A stretch of DNA of 64,000 nt from assembly GCA_964532525.1 (NCBI GenBank), contig CAZHIM010000012.1, positions 15,459-79,458 on the forward strand, given 5' to 3'. The position numbers were made by a program, and so were the translations under genes. Origin of the DNA: an uncultured Bifidobacteriaceae bacterium (lineage in GTDB: Bacteria; Verrucomicrobiota; Verrucomicrobiia; Limisphaerales; UBA11358). Each line of letters starts with the position of its first letter. Within the stretch, counting starts at the first letter, position 1. The notes below the pieces were generated by a model that saw nothing but the letters and a program-made list of their open reading frames with translations, made no database searches and was not told the origin of the DNA. Below are positions 5,354-49,160 of the stretch, piece by piece.

Positions 5354-7687
5354 TCACGGCGGGTTCAACAGGCCGCGGTAAAACAGGGCGGCGGGGTTGG
5401 CCGTGGGCAGCAGAACGCTGAAGGAATTGGTCGTGAAAGCATTCGTGCTGACGGTGGACCAGGTGACGAGGTTGGTGGACGATTGCAGGAGATAGCGCTG
5501 GCCGCCCTGGCCGTCCATCCACAGCAGCAACTGCCCGGCCGGGGCGTTCGTGCCGAGGCGCAGGCGGAGGTTTCTGGCGGTGGGCAGGACAAACAAGGTG
5601 ATGCTTTGCGCCGGCAACAGATTGGTGAGCACGCCGCCGGCGTAGGGCACCGCGGGCAGTTGCGTGATGACGTTGCTGGCAGTGAGCTGCCAGGCCTGGG
5701 CCGTGCCGCTGTCGGCGAAATTGGTGACGTTCAGCGACAGCGGCGTGGCCCCGCTGAGCACCTTGTTGATCACCATGACGGTGAGCGAACTGTCGTTGGT
5801 GCGGATGGCGGCAAACACCGAGAGATTATCCGGATCCGGCACGGTGGCGGAAACACTGATGTCGCCGAAGGCGGATTTCCGGCCATCGTAGTTGCGGTAC
5901 ATCTGCATGGACAGGAATGTGGGCGTGTTGTCAGCGGGCACCTCCCAGCGCGTGGCCAAGTCGAGCCCCTGGCGGCCAAAGATGCCGAGGAGGTCCGCCT
6001 CGGCGGTGGCGCCGTTGATGTAGGCGTCGGCGCCCCAATTGTACTCGGTGATGCCGATCTTGGTGCCGGGATAGTTATTGGTCACCCAGGCCTGCATGCG
6101 CGGGATGAGCATGAGAATGTTGTTGGTGGGCTGTTCGCCGATCCAGCTTTGATCCACGTAATTCGTGTCCCAGAGCTGGCGGGTGGATTCGTTGCGCAGG
6201 AGCTCGGTGGCCGGGGAAACATCGGTGCCGCCGTTGGCGTCCTCGGCGCCCTGCGGGTAGCAGTGGAGCGTAAAGTAATCGAGCAGGCGCCGGCCCGCGT
6301 TGGTGTCGTGCTGGTGCAACTGGTTCAGCAGCCACGGCATATAATCCCAGCCGCCGTTGGCAGCCCGGTCATGAAGACCGGAGTTTTGCTGGTCGAAGCC
6401 GCTGTAAAAATAGCCGCTCCAGCCCCATTCCTCCGGCCCACAGACGAGGGCGTTGGGATCGTTGGACTTCACCATGCTGGCGTAGTCCAGGATGCGGCCG
6501 AGGATCTCCTGCATGGTGGGGCCCACGGGGTGAACGTCCTGGTGGGTGGCGAACCAGATGCTGTGTTCGTTGTCCATGATGTAGTAGCGCACGCCGCCGT
6601 TGGTGGAATTGCCCCAGCCGCTGATCAGGTGCTGCACGTAGCCGCTTTGGAAGACGGAATTGGTGGGGAAATTGGCGTCGTTGGGATCGTTCGTGGTGAT
6701 GAGCCAGGTGGTGTGCGCGGTGGCGTTGGTGCCGATGCCGTCGCCGGCGTCGGGCATCCACTCCCAATCGTTGCCGAGCTGGGGGCCGTATTTGGCGATG
6801 GAATAGCTGGCCAGCTTGCCGCGCTGCGGGCCCAGCTTGGGCGACCAGCCGATCATGGGAATGGTGATCAGCGGTTGCGCGCCGCCATGGAGGCTGTTGG
6901 CCACAAAGGTGTCGGCTGTGGCGCCGGGCGTGGCGTCGCCGTCGTCAATGCTCTCGAAATACCAATCGGCGGCGTGGTTATGGGCGTTGAGCTGCCAATT
7001 GTAGGAGGTCTCGGCATTGCCGCCGGAGCGGTTCAGGGTGAAATTCAGCGTGGCCAGATCGTTGGAGGCGGCGAACGCGACGCCGTAAATCAACGGGCTG
7101 ATCGGGTGGCGGCCGGCCAGCGCATCCACTTGCACGGCCACGGGGGCGTTGTTGGTGACCGGCAGGGGCGGACCGGATTGCAGGGCCATGTCGTCCACGT
7201 AAAAGGGCGGTTGCGTGGTGCCGGAGCGGTCCTCGATCCAGAGGCCGTCCATTTGGCTTTGTCCGGCGGGCACCAAGGTGGACATGGGGGCATTGACGAG
7301 TTGCCAAGAGGTGCCCAAGGGACCGATGGAGATGCCAGCATTAAAGGCAGCGCCATTCAGCGAAGCCTGCACCCGGAGCAACTGGCCGCCGGAGGCGCCG
7401 CCGTTGATCCAGAAGCTGAAATTGGTATAGGAGGACGGCGAAAATGCGGTGTTATGGACGTAAAGCGCGCCCCAAGCGGTGACTTGGACGCTGATGGAAT
7501 CCGAACCGCTGTGGACGGGGGACGTATTGGCCAAATTGATCGTGTCGGACCAACTCCAGTTGGCCCAGCCGTTCTGGAGGGAATCGGTGTAAATGGCCTG
7601 GTCCGCGCGCGCCGCGAGTAGGCCCGCAGCGAGTGCCAGCAGGCAAAAACGAGGCCACGGCGGGCGATAGGACCAGTGAGACGACAT
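5354..7687 (-). CDS. Secreted GH44 endoglucanase/xyloglucanase with N-terminal CBM-like domain and C-terminal SxNLxxW...FYR domain
   Basis: NRSGGNAETSYNW, YYIMDNEHSIW, TLHCYPQ, IGITEYNWG are GH44 motifs; signal peptide after the M at 7687. Confidence 0.85.
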   Translation of the reverse strand: MSSHWSYRPPWPRFCLLALAAGLLAARADQAIYTDSLQNGWANWSWSDTINLANTSPVHSGSDSISVQVTAWGALYVHNTAFSPSSYTNFSFWINGGASGGQLLRVQASLNGAAFNAGISIGPLGTSWQLVNAPMSTLVPAGQSQMDGLWIEDRSGTTQPPFYVDDMALQSGPPLPVTNNAPVAVQVDALAGRHPISPLIYGVAFAASNDLATLNFTLNRSGGNAETSYNWQLNAHNHAADWYFESIDDGDATPGATADTFVANSLHGGAQPLITIPMIGWSPKLGPQRGKLASYSIAKYGPQLGNDWEWMPDAGDGIGTNATAHTTWLITTNDPNDANFPTNSVFQSGYVQHLISGWGNSTNGGVRYYIMDNEHSIWFATHQDVHPVGPTMQEILGRILDYASMVKSNDPNALVCGPEEWGWSGYFYSGFDQQNSGLHDRAANGGWDYMPWLLNQLHQHDTNAGRRLLDYFTLHCYPQGAEDANGGTDVSPATELLRNESTRQLWDTNYVDQSWIGEQPTNNILMLIPRMQAWVTNNYPGTKIGITEYNWGADAYINGATAEADLLGIFGRQGLDLATRWEVPADNTPTFLSMQMYRNYDGRKSAFGDISVSATVPDPDNLSVFAAIRTNDSSLTVMVINKVLSGATPLSLNVTNFADSGTAQAWQLTASNVITQLPAVPYAGGVLTNLLPAQSITLFVLPTARNLRLRLGTNAPAGQLLLWMDGQGGQRYLLQSSTNLVTWSTVSTNAFTTNSFSVLLPTANPAALFYRGLLNPP

Positions 7688-40722: not shown

Positions 40723-41061
40723 TCAGGATTCCTGGAGCGCGGGCTCTTTGTGGCCCGCCACTTCGGCGTCGGCCGGCAGGTACAGGTAGCGGCGGCAATT
40801 GTCGCACAGGCAGACGTCCTGGGCATGCTTGACCTCCAGCACCACGGCCACGGGCACGCGCATATGGCAGCCGGAGCAGGTCTGGTTGCGGAGCACGGCA
40901 ACACCCTTTTTGCCCTGGTCGCCCAAGCGGTCGTAATGGGCGAGGATGGGGGCGGGGATTTTCGCGCGCAGTTCGGCGATGCGATCTTCGGTGTCGGGGT
41001 GAATCGTGGTTTCGAATTCGAGCGTTTGGAGCTCGAACAGATACTTCATAATTTCTTTCAT
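40723..41061 (-). CDS. Short C4-type zinc-ribbon protein (DUF164-like C-terminus)
   Basis: CSGCHM...CDNCRRYL; ILAHYDRL; long coiled coil absent. Confidence 0.8.
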   Translation of the reverse strand: MKEIMKYLFELQTLEFETTIHPDTEDRIAELRAKIPAPILAHYDRLGDQGKKGVAVLRNQTCSGCHMRVPVAVVLEVKHAQDVCLCDNCRRYLYLPADAEVAGHKEPALQES

Positions 41062-41263
41062 AAATGAACGGATAACTGTCTCAACGCCGTGGAAAATGGG
41101 GCGAAGCCGGGCTCCGCGGCGGCATTTTCCACCGGGCTGATTTCGACGGATAGGAGACTCAAACTTCTGGTGGCTGCCCACTGGCTCATGCCCCCGCCGA
41201 AATCAATCCGCAGGACACCGGCCCGGTTCCTCCGGGCGCCGGTGCCTGCGTTATTAGCGTCGG

Positions 41264-41437
41264 TCAATGCTGCTTGCGCATATTGCGGCGCGAAGACTTC
41301 GGGTTGGCCGAAGGATTCGCCTTGGGCGCAGCCGCCGGGGCGGCCGGGGCAGTGGCGGTGCCGGCACATTTCTGCCCACAGGCAGGCGCGGCAGCGGGCG
41401 TGGCAGTCGTGGTGGTGGAAGTGTTTGAATCGCTCAT
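41264..41437 (-). CDS. Unannotated 57-aa Ala/Thr/Pro-rich small protein with CxxxC and a basic tail
   Basis: Hand translation MSDSNTSTTTTATPAAAPACGQKCAGTATAPAAPAAAPKANPSANPKSSRRNMRKQH; below the 60-aa track cutoff; follows a sigma54 promoter. Confidence 0.6.
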   Translation of the reverse strand: MSDSNTSTTTTATPAAAPACGQKCAGTATAPAAPAAAPKANPSANPKSSRRNMRKQH

Positions 41438-41493
41438 AATATATTTATTTCAATGTTACTTTGGTTGTCTTAAAGCAACCACCTTAATCTATC

Positions 41494-41508
41494 GCAAGCC
41501 ACGTGCCA
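41494..41508 (-). promoter_or_regulatory. Sigma54 (-24/-12) promoter
   Basis: Minus strand TGGCACGTGGCTTGC matches TGGCACG-N4-TTGC. Confidence 0.85.
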
Positions 41509-41619
41509 TCCCGGCCGGCGCAGGGGCGAAAGGGCCGGAATGGCCGCATTTACGGGGCAAAAATCAGCAATTCCGACTCTCCGTGACATCCCGGTGAAAA
41601 GGGCCGATACCCCGCTTTT

Positions 41620-41634
41620 GTGCAAATTATGCAC
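41620..41634. promoter_or_regulatory. Candidate enhancer-binding-protein site
   Basis: Palindrome GTGCA-AATTA-TGCAC about 110-125 bp upstream of the -24 box, overlapping the activator's stop codon. Confidence 0.55.
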
Positions 41635-43054
41635 TTGGAGCCGTCTCCTGGTGCAGGGAGCCGGCAACCCCCTTTTGGGGGTCGGCCGCCCCCACTTCAA
41701 GCAGGCCGTACTGCTTGAGCTTGTATTGCAAAGCCCGCCGGCTGATGCCCAGCGCCTGGGCCGCCGCCGACCGGTTGCTCGTCACGTGCATCAACGTCTG
41801 CCGGATGAGCAGCTTCTCCACCTCCGCCAGCGGCGTGCCGGGACGGACGGTGAAGGTGACGAGGCTGCGGTCGAACTCCCGCAGGAAATCCGGCAGGGCC
41901 TGGACCTGCACCACCGTGGCGCGGCCGGTGATGACGAGGCGTTCCACGGCGTTGCGCAACTGGCGGACATTGCCCGGCCAGGGGTAGCGCTGGCAAAGCT
42001 GCATGGCCTCCGGCGAAAGCCGCTTGCGAACGCGCTTGTGCTTGGCGGCGAAGGTCTCGAAGAAGCTTTCGATCAGCAGCGGAATGTCGTCGGCGCGCTC
42101 GCGCAGCGGCGGCATGACGATGGGCACCACATTGAGGCGGTAGAACAGGTCCTCGCGGAATTTTCCGTCCGCCACCGCTTGCGGCAGGTTCCGGTTGGTG
42201 GCGGCGATGATCCGTACGTTCACGCGGATGAGGTCCGAGCCGCCGACCATGCGGAAGGCGCCGTCCTCCAGCACGCGCAGCAGATCGCCCTGCCCCTTGG
42301 GCGACAGGTCGCCGATTTCGTCCAGGAAGAGCGTCCCGCCGTCGGCCAGTTGGAAGCGGCCGGGCTTCTGGGTGGTGGCGCCGGTGAAGGCGCCCTTGAC
42401 GTGGCCGAACAATTCGGCCTCGAGCAACTGCTCGGCGAAAGCGGCGCAGTTGACGGAAATGAACGGTTTCTCGTGCCGCTGGCTGTGCGTATGGATGAGC
42501 CGCGCGGCGATTTCCTTGCCGGTGCCGCTCTCGCCTTCGATCAGCACGGTCACGTCGCTTTGCGCCACCTCTTCGATGAGCCGGGAAATGGCGCGCATGC
42601 CTTCGCTCTCGCCGATCAGCGGCGTCGGGGCGGAGCGTTTTTGCAGGCGCGACCGCAGCTCGTGGTTTTCCACCACCACGGCCTGGTGCTCCAGCGCCTT
42701 TTGCACCAGCACGCGCAGCCGTTTCAGGTCAATCGGCTTGGGCAGGTAATCGTAGGCGCCCAGGCGCATGGCCGCCACGGCGTTCTCCACCGTGCTGAAG
42801 GCCGTCATGAGGATGAACAGCGTGTCGCGGTTGCGCTCGCGGATTTGCGCGAGCAATTCCAGGCCGCCGGCGCCGGGCATTTTGACGTCGGAAATCACCA
42901 GGTTGTAGAGGTTCTGGTCCACCAGCCGCAGGGCGCCGGCGGTGGCGTTGGCGGCATCCACCACGTAGCCCTCGCGCTGCAGCCCCTCCTGCAGGCCGGC
43001 GCACAGGCCCGGCTCGTCGTCCACCACCAGGATGCGGATCTTGGAATTATCCAA
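41627..43054 (-). CDS. Sigma54-dependent response regulator, NtrC/AtoC family
   Basis: ILVVDDE, SDVKMP, GESGTGKE, ELFGHVKGAFTGA (GAFTGA), WPGNVRQL, C-terminal HTH; TTG start overlaps the kinase stop. Confidence 0.95.
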   Translation of the reverse strand: MDNSKIRILVVDDEPGLCAGLQEGLQREGYVVDAANATAGALRLVDQNLYNLVISDVKMPGAGGLELLAQIRERNRDTLFILMTAFSTVENAVAAMRLGAYDYLPKPIDLKRLRVLVQKALEHQAVVVENHELRSRLQKRSAPTPLIGESEGMRAISRLIEEVAQSDVTVLIEGESGTGKEIAARLIHTHSQRHEKPFISVNCAAFAEQLLEAELFGHVKGAFTGATTQKPGRFQLADGGTLFLDEIGDLSPKGQGDLLRVLEDGAFRMVGGSDLIRVNVRIIAATNRNLPQAVADGKFREDLFYRLNVVPIVMPPLRERADDIPLLIESFFETFAAKHKRVRKRLSPEAMQLCQRYPWPGNVRQLRNAVERLVITGRATVVQVQALPDFLREFDRSLVTFTVRPGTPLAEVEKLLIRQTLMHVTSNRSAAAQALGISRRALQYKLKQYGLLEVGAADPQKGVAGSLHQETAPSA

Positions 43055-43859
43055 CGCTGGTCCTTTCGGTTGAGTTTCGCTTGAGCGGGAGGGTGAGCAC
43101 GAACATGGCGCCGCCGCCCGGCGCGTTTTCCGCGTGCAGATCGCCGCCATGCGCCACGGTGATTTGCTGGGCAATCCACAGGCCCAGGCCGTTGCCTTCC
43201 GGCTTGGTCGTAAAATACGGATCAAAAATCTCGCCCAGCTCGTTCGGCGGTATCCCCGGCCCGGTGTCCTGCACCCGCAGCAACAAGTTGTCCCCGGACC
43301 GCGCCGCGCCCACGGTCACCCGGCCGCCGCCGCTGATGGCCTGGATGGCATTGATGATGACGTTCATGAGGGCCTGCGTGATCCGCACCGAGTCCACGGT
43401 GACCGGCGGCAGATCCGCGGCCACGTCGGTGACGATCTCGACCTGGCGGTTGGAGGCCTCGGGGCGGAGCAAATCGCAGACGTGGGTGACGATGGTGTTA
43501 ATGGAGACGGACTCGAGTTCGAGCGCCGAGGGTCCGCTGAGTTTGAGGAAGCGCTCGACGATGCTGTCCAAGCGCTGGAGTTCACCGCGAATGACGCCCA
43601 GGCGCGAGATGAGCGGGGGGCGCATCTGCGGGGCCATGGCGGCGAGGTCCTCTTCCAGCAGTTGAAATTGGACGTCCAGGGAGCTGAGCGGATTGCGGAT
43701 TTCGTGCGCGAGGCGCCGGAGGAGGCGGGCCAGCAAATCGCGGTTTTCGGGCGCCGGCGACTGGGCGGCACCCGGCCCCGTGGCGGGGGCTAAAATGTTG
43801 TCATTCACATCCCGGGAAACTTCTCCGGCGGGCGGCGGGCGGTCAAACGTTTTCTGCAT
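43047..43859 (-). CDS. Histidine kinase lacking a sensor domain (HisKA + HATPase_c)
   Basis: LAHEIRNPL, NVIINAIQA, DTGPG, YFTTK, GLGL; no TM segment. Confidence 0.9.
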   Translation of the reverse strand: MQKTFDRPPPAGEVSRDVNDNILAPATGPGAAQSPAPENRDLLARLLRRLAHEIRNPLSSLDVQFQLLEEDLAAMAPQMRPPLISRLGVIRGELQRLDSIVERFLKLSGPSALELESVSINTIVTHVCDLLRPEASNRQVEIVTDVAADLPPVTVDSVRITQALMNVIINAIQAISGGGRVTVGAARSGDNLLLRVQDTGPGIPPNELGEIFDPYFTTKPEGNGLGLWIAQQITVAHGGDLHAENAPGGGAMFVLTLPLKRNSTERTSVG

Positions 43860-43881
43860 GGGTTTCGGACGGCCCGGGCGG

Positions 43882-44361
43882 CTATTCCACGCGGAGAATG
43901 TGGGCCGGCTGGGGCACGCCGCCGAGGTTGAGTTGCGGGCGGTCGCCCTGCTGCTTGCCCAGGAGCTGCTCGCCCAGGGGCGATTGCGGGGTGATGACCA
44001 GGATTTCCTTCCGGTCATGGATCACCTCGGTGCCGCCGGCGCGCGGGCCGAGGAAGTACAGGGTTTTCTCGCCGCTGTGCTCCAGCTCCACCAGCGCCCC
44101 CAGGGCGATGGCCTCGCCGGCCGCCAGGGGGTGTCCGTCGAGCTTCTCGAATTCGCGGATGGCCGTCTCCAGCTCCGCCGCCTGGCGGGACTGGCCGTGG
44201 GCCAGGTAGGAGGCTTCGAGGCCGCGGGTGTCGTATTTATGCTCGGCCTTGTTCTGCTCGTGGGTGGCTTCCGCCCGGGCGAATTGGGCGGCGCGGAAAT
44301 ACAGTTCCAGCTCGTCGGCCAGCTTGGCGGTGATTTTTTTGATAATGGCGCGTTTGTTCAC
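43882..44361 (-). CDS. GreA/GreB-family short paralogue
   Basis: KAEHKYDTRGLEASYLA; ITPQSPLGEQLLGK matches the Gre C-terminal domain. Confidence 0.8.
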   Translation of the reverse strand: MNKRAIIKKITAKLADELELYFRAAQFARAEATHEQNKAEHKYDTRGLEASYLAHGQSRQAAELETAIREFEKLDGHPLAAGEAIALGALVELEHSGEKTLYFLGPRAGGTEVIHDRKEILVITPQSPLGEQLLGKQQGDRPQLNLGGVPQPAHILRVE

Positions 44362-44502
44362 AATGCCGGGACCGTACCGGATTCGGGCAGGTTACCCCAA
44401 CGGCCGGGGCCCCGCAATCGGCGGTTCGCCCGGCACCGGGGCCGCCGGCCGCGCAAATGTCGCTTGGCAGGCGGGGCCGATTCTGTTTTATTGGCCCCGC
44501 CG

Positions 44503-46782: not shown

Positions 46783-47520
46783 TCACTTCAGCGGCAGCGT
46801 GATGCAAAACGTGGAGCCGCGGCCCACCTCGCTCCGCACCTCGATCACACCGTGATGCTCCTCCACCACGCGCCGCGTGATGGCCAGGCCCAGGCCGGTG
46901 CCGTGCTTCTTGGTGGTGAAAAAGGTGTCGAATATGTGGCCGAAATTCTCCGGGGCAATGCCCGCGCCGGTGTCGCAAATGGACACCTTCAGGTTGCCGT
47001 CGGCGCCTTCCGTCCGCACCGTCAGTTCGCCGCCCTGGCTCATGGCCTCCACGGCGTTGAGCAGGAGGTTCAGCAGCGCCTGTTGCAGCCGCGACTCGTC
47101 GCCCACCACCACGGGCGTCGCCGCCCGGTAGTCGCGCCGCACGGTGACGGACCGCTCGTGAATCTGGTGTTCCATGAGCCGCAGCGTCAGTTCCAGCAGT
47201 TCGTGCAGGTTCACGGACGCCTGCGTGGCCGACCGCGACGCCGCCAGCCGCAGCATCTGCGTGGCCAGCCCGTCTATGCGCTTCAATTCCCGCCGCACCA
47301 GCTCCGCCATCTCGCGGTCGGCGTTCTTTTCCAGGAGCACCTCGCAAAAGGTGTTGATGGCCACCAGGCCGTTCTTGATTTCGTGGGCGATGCCGGCGGA
47401 GAAGACGCCCAGATTGGCCAGCCGGTCAAGCTGCTGGAGATTCTGCTGCACGTCCGGCCCCGCGTGGGAAGCACCCCCCGCCGCGCCGCGGTCAATTTTT
47501 TGCGGACTACTGGAAGACAT
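46783..47520 (-). CDS. Second sensorless histidine kinase (HisKA + HATPase_c)
   Basis: LANLGVFSAGIAHEIKNGL, NLLLNAVEA, DTGAG, FFTTK, GLGL. Confidence 0.9.
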   Translation of the reverse strand: MSSSSPQKIDRGAAGGASHAGPDVQQNLQQLDRLANLGVFSAGIAHEIKNGLVAINTFCEVLLEKNADREMAELVRRELKRIDGLATQMLRLAASRSATQASVNLHELLELTLRLMEHQIHERSVTVRRDYRAATPVVVGDESRLQQALLNLLLNAVEAMSQGGELTVRTEGADGNLKVSICDTGAGIAPENFGHIFDTFFTTKKHGTGLGLAITRRVVEEHHGVIEVRSEVGRGSTFCITLPLK

Positions 47521-48886: not shown

Positions 48887-48973
48887 CGGGCTGGTGCGGC
48901 TCCGATTGAAGCGAGGGGACGTCGCGGTTCGCGCCGGCATCTCAGCTTTTAGACGCCCGACGGCCGACTTTTT

Positions 48974-49160
48974 GTTCCGAAGGAACAATCGAAAATAGCC
49001 CGGCAATTCATTGCCGGGGGTGCGGCAATCGGTTGTCGAGTCCCAGCGGGACGGCTGAAAAGAGAATACGATTCCATCCGTCCCGCTGGGACTTGCCGCC
49101 AAGCCAGCCCACCCACCCCCAATAAATTGGGGGGCTATTGTCAAAAAGTCCCTTCGGGAC
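48974..49160. repeat. Nested palindromic REP-like element (GTCCC...GGGAC type)
   Basis: Inverted pairs AGTCCCAGCGGGACGG/CCGTCCCGCTGGGACT and AATAGCCC/GGGCTATT; terminal mini-hairpins GTTCCGAAGGAAC and GTCCCTTCGGGAC. Confidence 0.8.

Follow-up and report, generated by a model that had tools for sequence, protein, structure and literature searches.

A sensorless kinase and an NtrC-type activator of a peat-soil Verrucomicrobium adjoin a conserved sigma-54 promoter and a small open reading frame

Circuits that depend on sigma-54 are well understood in the Proteobacteria and have barely been studied in the Verrucomicrobiota, a phylum abundant in peat and wetland soils. Several of the known circuits place a small target next to the gene of its activator. 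Qrr1 adjoins luxO in Vibrio, and ZraS/ZraR-zraP of Escherichia coli and PspF-pspA chiefly yield a small accessory protein, which is encoded next to the regulator and exerts feedback on the circuit; ZraP is a folded periplasmic protein of 141 amino acids, PspA is a coiled coil, and ZraS has a periplasmic sensor domain. The kinases of the NrsZ, GlmY and Qrr1 systems are not known to be of the bare type that consists of a dimerization and histidine phosphotransfer (DHp) domain plus a catalytic domain. In Pseudomonas aeruginosa the RpoN promoter of nrsZ is located in the intergenic region after ntrC (PMC4253122), and in Enterobacteriaceae GlrR drives glmY, a small sigma-54 target beside glrK/glrR (PMC3045617). 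Here we analyze a 64-kb stretch of contig CAZHIM010000012.1 (hereafter the window, whose coordinates we use throughout), from a peat-soil Verrucomicrobium, in which a kinase-activator pair adjoins a conserved sigma-54 promoter and a 57-codon open reading frame (ORF), with all features of the circuit read on the minus strand. Like NtrB/NtrC-nrsZ, GlrK/GlrR-glmY and LuxO-qrr1, the locus has a small sigma-54 target beside the activator gene, and it shares with NrsZ and GlmY the presence of activator sites ~100–150 bp upstream of a TGGCAC-N5-TTGC promoter (PMC4253122, PMC3045617). However, the products of nrsZ, glmY and qrr1 are non-coding RNAs, whereas the product of the window gene evolves as a protein. 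It also resembles ZraSR-zraP and PspF-pspA, as a compact sigma-54 circuit with a small protein encoded next to the regulator, but neither ZraP nor PspA has any likeness in sequence or composition to the 57-residue peptide, predicted to be disordered and cytoplasmic, and feedback is known for those systems only.

From the comparisons described below, we consider it highly probable that the architecture of this circuit is real and that the ORF encodes a protein. That the locus is a real two-component, sigma-54-dependent circuit whose direct and conserved output is a small protein-coding gene we regard as probable, with somewhat less assurance. According to Pfam and the ORF listing, the minus-strand order in the region 40800–44400 is a GreA-like gene, the kinase, the activator, a 189-nucleotide (nt) intergenic region, the 57-codon ORF, a 202-nt spacer, a Zn_ribbon_9 gene and a glutamate dehydrogenase gene. 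The logic of this circuit is familiar; the family of its output, the link to a FlgZ/CdsZ-like protein and an RNA motif in the spacer are undescribed in the libraries that we searched.

The kinase (43859–43047, 270 amino acids) contains the Pfam domains HisKA (residues 44–108) and HATPase_c (156–260), with the H-box HEIRNP at 52, the G1 motif DTGPG at 198 and the G2 motif GNGLGL at 222. No PAS or other sensor domain was found with Pfam, and the ~43 low-complexity, Pro/Ala-rich residues that precede the H-box match no Pfam family. With HisKA and HATPase_c as its only Pfam domains, the protein is an input-less, putatively cytoplasmic histidine kinase made of DHp and catalytic domains only, and its NCBIfam matches are to the C-terminal cores of AtoS and ZraS, far under the cut-offs. 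The activator gene (43054–41627, 475 amino acids) begins at a TTG codon that overlaps the kinase stop, and its product combines the Pfam domains REC, Sigma54_activat, AAA_lid_14 and HTH_8, with intact GAFTGA (at 221), Walker A (174) and Walker B (245) motifs and the receiver Asp in ISDVKMP. A receiver, an AAA+ domain with GAFTGA and a C-terminal Fis-type helix-turn-helix are what identifies an NtrC-type response regulator, or bacterial enhancer-binding protein. Both proteins agree with a preliminary description of the window, made from its letters alone, that spoke of a sensorless kinase and an NtrC-family activator. In NCBIfam, ZraS ranks among the best matches of the kinase, and ZraR among those of the activator. 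Nevertheless, because the whole-protein scores of the activator fall under the equivalog cut-offs (ntrC, 448.9 vs 558.6; AtoC, 444.1 vs 714; ZraR, 394.7 vs 760), and because it reaches neither the GlrR nor the LuxO equivalog cut-off in NCBIfam, we classify it by sequence as an NtrC-family member of unassigned specificity.

The sequence GTGCATAATTTGCAC (41634–41620) is the only exact occurrence of the palindrome GTGCA-N5-TGCAC in the 64 kb. The preliminary description had placed it after the activator gene, but the last codons and the stop of that gene extend into it, with the TAA falling inside the palindrome spacer, and it is part of a putative enhancer with three half-sites rather than two. 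The third one, TGCAC (41655–41651), is located inside the activator coding region, 16 nt upstream of the palindrome, and the window scan and the conservation in relatives delimit the whole upstream activating sequence to 41655–41620. At a separation of 111 nt from the palindrome, where a consensus promoter had been announced at about 110 bp, is TGGCACGTGGCTTGC (41508–41494), the only exact TGGCAC-N5-TTGC in the window. It has the makings of a sigma-54 (−24/−12) promoter, as the GG and the GC are exactly 10 nt apart within TGGCAC-N5-TTGC(A/T), and the inverted-repeat sites ~80–150 bp upstream of it, conserved together with the activator, are those expected of an enhancer. The predicted transcription start is near 41483–41481.

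Based on the statistics of the window alone, neither the promoter nor the palindrome is convincing. When one mismatch is tolerated, there are five palindrome sites where 2.6 are expected, and five promoter sites where 7.4 are expected, so near-matches of the latter are not enriched. The promoter motif is statistically unremarkable by itself, and its weight comes from its conservation in relatives. A site of the form (T)GGCA[CT]-N5-NTGC was present 48–74 nt before the ATG in all 54 complete homologous small ORFs, its first base being T in 50 and A or C in four. Moreover, 51 of the 54 distinct upstream sequences carry the enhancer TTGCAC-N~16-GTGCA-N5-TGCAC, located 99–127 nt upstream of the promoter, and the three that lack it (L137, L145 and L160) do not adjoin this activator. 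In L137 and L145 the small ORF and its sigma-54 promoter are found beside a different, divergently transcribed activator (45–49% identical), and the upstream repeat differs (…CGAAATATCGT…ACGACGAA…), which suggests that the small gene was captured there by another sigma-54 activator. We also observed a conserved A/T-rich block at ~41540–41560 on the minus strand, ~35–50 bp upstream of the −24 element, which reads, for example, CCAATAAAAACGGCC or AAATCAAGCGATT and is present in relatives as well; it partly resembles a site for integration host factor (WATCAANNNNTTR) and is in the position expected for a DNA-bending protein.

The small ORF (41437–41264) reads MSDSNTSTTTTATPAAAPACGQKCAGTATAPAAPAAAPKANPSANPKSSRRNMRKQH, a peptide of 57 residues with CxxxC at residues 20–24 and a basic tail, as previously described. 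The exact protein is absent from a collection of 5.8 billion proteins, which fits with the ORF not having been called in the source annotation. A search with the single peptide returned one marginal match, P0001 (E = 0.47; the homologues of the family are numbered P0001–P0030), which shares the N-terminus MSDSNT and the C-terminus SRRxxRKQH. Three contigs encode P0001, and on them a sigma-54 activator gene is followed by the small ORF, the zinc-ribbon gene and a phosphotransferase system (PTS) EIIA gene; P0001 was accepted as a true orthologue because of this synteny and of the profile search. With a three-sequence profile we recovered 15 called proteins, most of them with spurious N-terminal extensions through the leader, and an exhaustive hidden Markov model search of 1.84 billion cluster representatives yielded only 21 members. 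The family exists, yet gene callers almost never report it. The window peptide matches no Pfam family; no NCBIfam family matches the window peptide, P0001 or P0013, and relatives are named only as 'hypothetical protein'. A search of metagenomes with back-translated patterns of the small protein, a low-complexity query, matched 600 stretches, none of which was confirmed.

Orthologues of the activator were identified in two metagenome-assembled genomes (MAGs) of Verrucomicrobiota, with 76% identity in L004 (Limisphaerales) and 72% in L005, and in the former both the palindrome and the promoter are present, together with an ORF of this type that also has 57 codons. As an unbiased sample, 80 metagenome loci were fetched via the zinc-ribbon protein alone. 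The small ORF was found in 56 of them, 54 complete and two recognized by eye (one complete and one cut by the contig end), and in eight others there was too little upstream sequence to judge. The kinase and the activator precede the small ORF wherever the contig is long enough, and the order kinase, activator, small ORF, Zn_ribbon_9 and, frequently, PTS_EIIA_2 recurs in dozens of independent metagenome and MAG loci. The test set beforehand for the preliminary description was whether ORF and promoter are conserved beside orthologous activators, and it came out positive in this recurrence, in the fixed spacing and in a coding pattern of substitutions.

This pattern was determined on 55 distinct nucleotide sequences that encode 54 distinct peptides. 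The length varies between 53 and 64 codons, the ATG is fixed, and TAA, TGA and TAG all occur as stops. Over the seven N-terminal codons that follow the ATG and the 12 C-terminal ones, the column entropies add up to 15.2, 13.1 and 23.2 for the first, second and third codon position, respectively, and when sequences are compared in pairs the differences are likewise most numerous at the third position (10/5/27 in one example). Arg(−4) and Gln(−2) never vary and Lys(−3) hardly does (41 of 43), while the R-K-Q codons that encode them have an entropy of ~0.8 at the third base and of zero, or close to it, at the other two. Because third positions take up most of the variation, and residues that do not change are specified by codons that do, we conclude from the alignments that the peptide is under purifying selection and that the small ORF evolves as a protein. 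Members of the family begin with M-[SN]-[DE]-S-N-x-S, continue with a segment rich in Thr, as a rule two Cys and a segment rich in Ala and Pro, and finish with PK-x-S-RR-xx-RKQH; both ends are conserved, and the Thr-rich and Ala/Pro-rich middle drifts. AlphaFold, run on a seven-sequence alignment, gave a predicted template modelling score (pTM) of 0.15 and a predicted local distance difference test (pLDDT) of 61, without secondary structure; this is consistent with an intrinsically disordered protein, and 'probably disordered' is also how it had first been portrayed.

The alternative that survives best is that the promoter drives a regulatory small RNA, or a dual-function RNA, in which the ORF is incidental or secondary. 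We consider it unlikely, although not without arguments: the architecture is the same as in ntrC-nrsZ (PMC4253122) and matches that of GlrR-glmY (PMC3045617), the unit is short (~290 nt), it has a conserved 5′ hairpin and a terminator-like hairpin with a GGAGGAA loop, and its ATG lacks a Shine-Dalgarno sequence. The leader (41493–41438) is A/T-rich, as the preliminary description had it, with 27% GC compared to ~66% in the flanking genes. At the predicted 5′ end of the transcript it holds the small hairpin GGTTG-CTTTAAGA-CAACC (41480–41463), whose GGTTG...CAACC arms are kept in nearly all of the 55 aligned leaders. This is mostly conservation of sequence, with few compensated variants, and the hairpin is weak alone (−6.7 kcal/mol, z = −0.65). 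Between it and the ATG there is A/U-rich leader (41462–41438) and no Shine-Dalgarno sequence, but the neighboring zinc-ribbon gene does not have one either. Furthermore, an RNA function would not account for a start codon, frame, length and stop kept throughout the 55 distinct sequences, nor for third-position variation under invariant residues, and the conserved peptide ends around a middle whose nucleotides are free are the opposite of what a base-pairing seed would produce. With its coding substitution pattern, the small-gene transcript does not fall among the non-coding RNAs of the NrsZ, GlmY or Qrr type, although it could conceivably have a second role as RNA.

Expression data from relatives fit the existence of a separate, well-expressed small transcript. 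In four peat metatranscriptomes, contigs of relatives, all of them less than 99% identical to the window, align to the region. The contig of one relative spans 41258–41464, that is, the ORF with 27 nt of leader and 6 nt past the stop, and it has a depth of 32, whereas the contig that covers the zinc-ribbon gene reaches ~13. Several different metatranscriptome contigs share the initial 36 nt of the small ORF, and none of the contigs aligns to 41477–41699, between the activator gene and the predicted start, which is compatible with that start without fixing it. One contig runs into adapter sequence ~20 nt upstream of the ATG; we gave this no weight, as either RNA processing or a short insert might explain it.

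Downstream of the small gene, a GC-rich hairpin starts ~14 nt past the stop in nearly all the homologous loci. In most lineages the loop reads GGAGGAA or differs little from it, also in those with a changed stem. In eight loci (L148, L150, L157–L160, L164 and L168) it is followed by a U-tract, making it a classical intrinsic terminator. The long hairpin of the window (41250–41209) is probably a weak terminator or a 3′ stabilizer of the small-gene transcript. The GGAGGAA loop is Shine-Dalgarno-like, and could bind a protein or pair with the 3′ end of 16S rRNA.

The way in which the zinc-ribbon gene is reached beyond this hairpin differs among lineages. In seven loci (L148, L150, L157, L158, L159, L164 and L168) it has a second enhancer (TTGCAC...GTGCAAAGGTTGCAC) and a sigma-54-type TGGTAT-N5-TAGC promoter; L170 and L171 have a second enhancer and a variant sigma-54 promoter (~2270–2500) before it and no small ORF; and the L004/L084/L093 lineage has a sigma-70-type TTGCAA-N17-TATAAG instead. 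The window belongs to the largest group, whose spacer contains an RNA element of ~85 nt and no recognizable promoter. With a separate promoter for the zinc-ribbon gene in other lineages, the small gene stands alone as the constant sigma-54 target, and the comparison indicates that the wiring of the zinc-ribbon gene changed repeatedly. In the window, neither a sigma-70-like promoter nor a U-tract terminator was found between 40600 and 41750, and because no such signal separates the small ORF from the zinc-ribbon gene, read-through from the sigma-54 promoter is plausible as the simplest source of zinc-ribbon mRNA in this lineage. The preliminary description had named the zinc-ribbon gene as a possible second output. 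For the window lineage, the sequence supports such co-transcription with moderate confidence; as a general rule the proposal does not hold, given the separate promoters elsewhere.

This variation bears on another alternative, that the ORF is a cis-acting leader or arrest peptide whose translation, perhaps at the Thr-rich or Ala/Pro-rich codons or at the conserved C-terminus by the stop, controls read-through of the hairpin into the zinc-ribbon gene. The Thr run of the ORF is reminiscent of amino-acid operon leaders. A strong hairpin starts 14 nt past its stop, the C-terminal residues by the stop are the most conserved part of the peptide, and the metatranscriptome contigs of relatives have a greater depth over the ORF than over the gene that follows it. 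Nevertheless, the peptide is equally conserved where the small gene is a closed unit and the zinc-ribbon promoter is separate, and such a stand-alone, terminated gene argues against an ORF that serves solely as a cis-regulator. Attenuation leaders are also generally shorter than 57 codons, none of the downstream genes is connected with the metabolism of Thr, Ala or Pro, and no alternative anti-terminator pairing was seen. We therefore give this explanation even less credit than the small RNA. Least probable of all, and already made unlikely by the comparative data, is that the promoter serves the zinc-ribbon gene and the ORF is a chance frame in a GC-rich 5′ untranslated region, or that the motifs are chance matches: high-GC DNA does give many spurious ORFs, several of which overlap the small ORF on both strands, promoter near-matches are no commoner than chance in the window, and in L170 and L171, which have no small ORF, it is the zinc-ribbon gene that directly follows the enhancer and a sigma-54-like promoter, but the frame, the ends and the peptide termini are conserved in 55 sequences with a coding pattern, the promoter and the enhancer keep fixed distances to the ATG, and the small gene persists where it could not be the untranslated region of the zinc-ribbon gene.

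Several observations count against a small protein-coding gene as the conserved output of a complete circuit, and should be weighed with it. The GC content of the small ORF by codon position (0.53/0.76/0.71) is not typically coding when compared to that of its neighbors (~0.68/0.43/0.85), which we attribute to its Ala/Pro/Thr composition. The middle of the peptide is fast-evolving and of low complexity. The pair of Cys is conserved neither in spacing nor in presence, as two Cys occur in 40 peptides, a single Cys in nine and no Cys in one, with spacings that include CxC, Cx2C and Cx3C; the CxxxC that had been singled out in the window peptide is not a feature of the family, whose other members mostly have CxC or Cx2–3C. 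Sixteen of the 80 zinc-ribbon loci clearly lack the small ORF, and L005, with both palindrome and promoter, has a STAS-domain gene where it would be, so the output of this activator family is not always the small protein. No public RNA run contains the exact sequence, and for this organism the transcription start, translation and activator binding are deduced from DNA sequence. Finally, rpoN is not in the window. The circuit had been called self-contained, which is true of the kinase, activator, enhancer, promoter and target, found together here, and not of the sigma factor.

The spacer of the window lineage merits a separate description. RNAalifold, applied to 26 distinct copies of the RNA element, predicted a four-way junction with a closing stem of 15 pairs (the sequences suggest ~17–20) and three arms, namely hairpins of 3 bp, of 4 bp (with AUGAUAGC as its conserved loop) and of 5–6 bp, the last one with the loop G-UUCGAGU-C, which matches the consensus of the tRNA T-loop. 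Paired cells make up 97.6% of the total over the 27 predicted pairs, compared to 25–46% when the partners are slid by 1–3 columns; seven pairs have compensatory changes, and none of 500 shuffles reached the observed covariation. A covariance model detected the element once, and only once, in each locus, in every case upstream of the zinc-ribbon gene (for example, L115 2367–2456 and L167 2370–2459), with scores of 100–110 bits in the sense and ~30 in the antisense orientation. The copy of the window (41212–41129) is partly decayed, with deletions in two hairpins and a score of 74 bits, and there is further decay or loss in its closest relatives (L095, L097, L098, L101, L103, L108 and L109). No relevant match was obtained in Rfam 15, even at E values up to 10, and the region thus yields a structured RNA motif absent from that database. 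With a four-way junction, a long closing stem and a 7-nt T-type loop the element resembles a tRNA, but its closing stem of ~15 pairs (17–20 by eye), its 4-bp middle arm, its D-like arm with a loop of only 4–6 nt and the lack of a CCA end set it apart. We discarded tRNA, tmRNA and known ribozymes, since ARAGORN (window and five loci) and Rfam were negative. We also discarded an N-terminal extension of the zinc-ribbon protein (HQKFESP...), as the frame runs into a stop ahead of the zinc-ribbon start in L088, the RNA covaries, and the scores are ~105 bits in sense and ~30 in antisense. Possible roles are a tRNA-mimicking processing site, or a protein or ligand binding site that controls expression of the zinc-ribbon gene.

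The zinc-ribbon protein itself (41061–40723, 112 amino acids) belongs to PF02591 (Zn_ribbon_9, formerly DUF164), with 37.7 bits for a cut-off of 29.1. Its residues 29–98 align to 167–237 of HP0958 (3NA7, E = 5.6e-5), it also aligns with the C-terminal 70 residues of CT398 (4ILO, E = 6.9e-4), and C62, C65, C86 and C89, which form two CxxC motifs, are invariant in six orthologues. HP0958 (FlgZ, Helicobacter pylori) and CT398 (CdsZ, Chlamydia trachomatis) share with it the C-terminal four-Cys ribbon and the helix that precedes it, but they are ~255 amino acids long and have a long N-terminal coiled-coil hairpin (~160 amino acids). Because most of this coiled coil is absent from the 112 amino acids of the window protein, we place it in the HP0958/CT398 family at the level of the domain only, and with 27.4 bits against the 275 of the CdsZ equivalog it is not a full-length equivalent. 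Chlamydiae and Verrucomicrobiota belong to the same superphylum (Planctomycetes-Verrucomicrobia-Chlamydiae, PVC), and in Chlamydia the kinase/activator pair CtcB/CtcC feeds sigma-54. HP0958/FlgZ protects RpoN from turnover through its zinc-ribbon domain (PMC3372290), and CT398/CdsZ is reported to bind sigma-54 and proposed to be a repressor (PMC7482065, citing Barta 2015). A synteny survey of the HP0958 family (PMC3372290) does not mention these genes as sigma-54 targets or after a small ORF.

A PTS_EIIA_2 gene overlaps the zinc-ribbon stop in most relatives. The window and its nearest relatives (L095, L096, L098, L100, L101, L103, L105 and L108) have a glutamate dehydrogenase gene in its place (40356–39100 in the window), separated from the zinc-ribbon gene by a gap of 366 nt, in which the only candidate for a sigma-54 promoter is a poor TGGTAT-N5-TGAT without the GC. 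In Proteobacteria, the EIIA of the nitrogen-related PTS (EIIA-Ntr) is linked to rpoN and acts on sensor kinases such as KdpD (PMC9239096). The EIIA-like gene of most relatives recalls this protein (PtsN), and the analogy suggests that EIIA-type control could be an input for the sensorless kinase, although the window itself has no EIIA gene at this position.

Taking all of this together, we propose that a partner protein or metabolite most likely controls the kinase, which would phosphorylate the NtrC-type activator. The latter would bind the three TGCAC/GTGCA half-sites at 41655–41620, ~110–150 bp upstream of the promoter, contact sigma-54 RNA polymerase at 41508–41494 and open the promoter. 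The transcript would start near 41482 with the small 5′ hairpin, continue through the A/U-rich leader and encode the disordered 57-residue protein, with its conserved acidic/Ser-Asn N-terminus and basic ...SRRxxRKQH C-terminus. The hairpin past the stop probably ends or stabilizes most transcripts, and in the window lineage read-through probably crosses the RNA element into the zinc-ribbon gene. We infer that the small protein could be a regulatory partner of the adjacent sigma-54-associated module (the zinc-ribbon protein, joined in most relatives by the EIIA-like one), perhaps feeding back on sigma-54 or on the kinase. This partnership is argued from gene neighborhood only, and our confidence in any specific function of the peptide is low. 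In its most explicit form, the proposal is that the small protein, as adaptor or anti-adaptor, makes up with the zinc-ribbon protein and, in the majority of lineages, the EIIA-like protein a sigma-54-driven module that feeds back on sigma-54 or the kinase, and that the cloverleaf RNA is a new element for processing or sensing, which mimics a tRNA and determines the proportion of the two products; we offer it as a speculation that is more likely wrong than right, and by a wide measure.

Nevertheless, the conserved direct output of one verrucomicrobial sigma-54 circuit would belong to a family that gene callers almost always miss, and gene order ties this small family to a relative of FlgZ and CdsZ, the only proteins reported to bind or stabilize sigma-54, and to an EIIA-like regulator. 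The locus may be an entry point to the tuning of sigma-54 outside model organisms and to the way in which sensorless kinases receive signals. Across lineages, the zinc-ribbon gene would be expressed in three ways, by read-through via a structured RNA, from its own sigma-54 promoter or from a sigma-70 promoter.

The surroundings of the circuit deserve mention. About 20 nt past the zinc-ribbon stop, reading of the sequence reveals a GC-rich hairpin without a U-tract, GGCGCGCAGGC-TTCCC-GCCTGCGCGCC (40700–40674), and the transcription unit may end there. The gene that immediately precedes the kinase encodes a protein of 159 amino acids that resembles the C-terminal part of GreA/GreB, below the Pfam threshold (44361–43882); no homologue of it was found in the related loci checked, of which only L004, L005, L084 and L086 extend upstream of the kinase. 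In L005, a TGGCAT-N5-GTGC promoter precedes the almost leaderless STAS-domain gene, of the anti-sigma-antagonist type (5519–6070), and a second zinc-ribbon gene and an EIIA gene are found ~2 kb downstream, in convergent orientation. The window also encodes a second kinase with HisKA and HATPase_c only (46783–47520, minus strand, 245 amino acids), which is 34% identical to the first and has no response regulator gene that we could see adjacent to it. Finally, an Acido-Lenti-1 RNA motif (RF01687) is located at 48973–49018 on the minus strand, with 44.4 bits for a gathering score of 37, and it is the sole Rfam match above the gathering threshold in the window.

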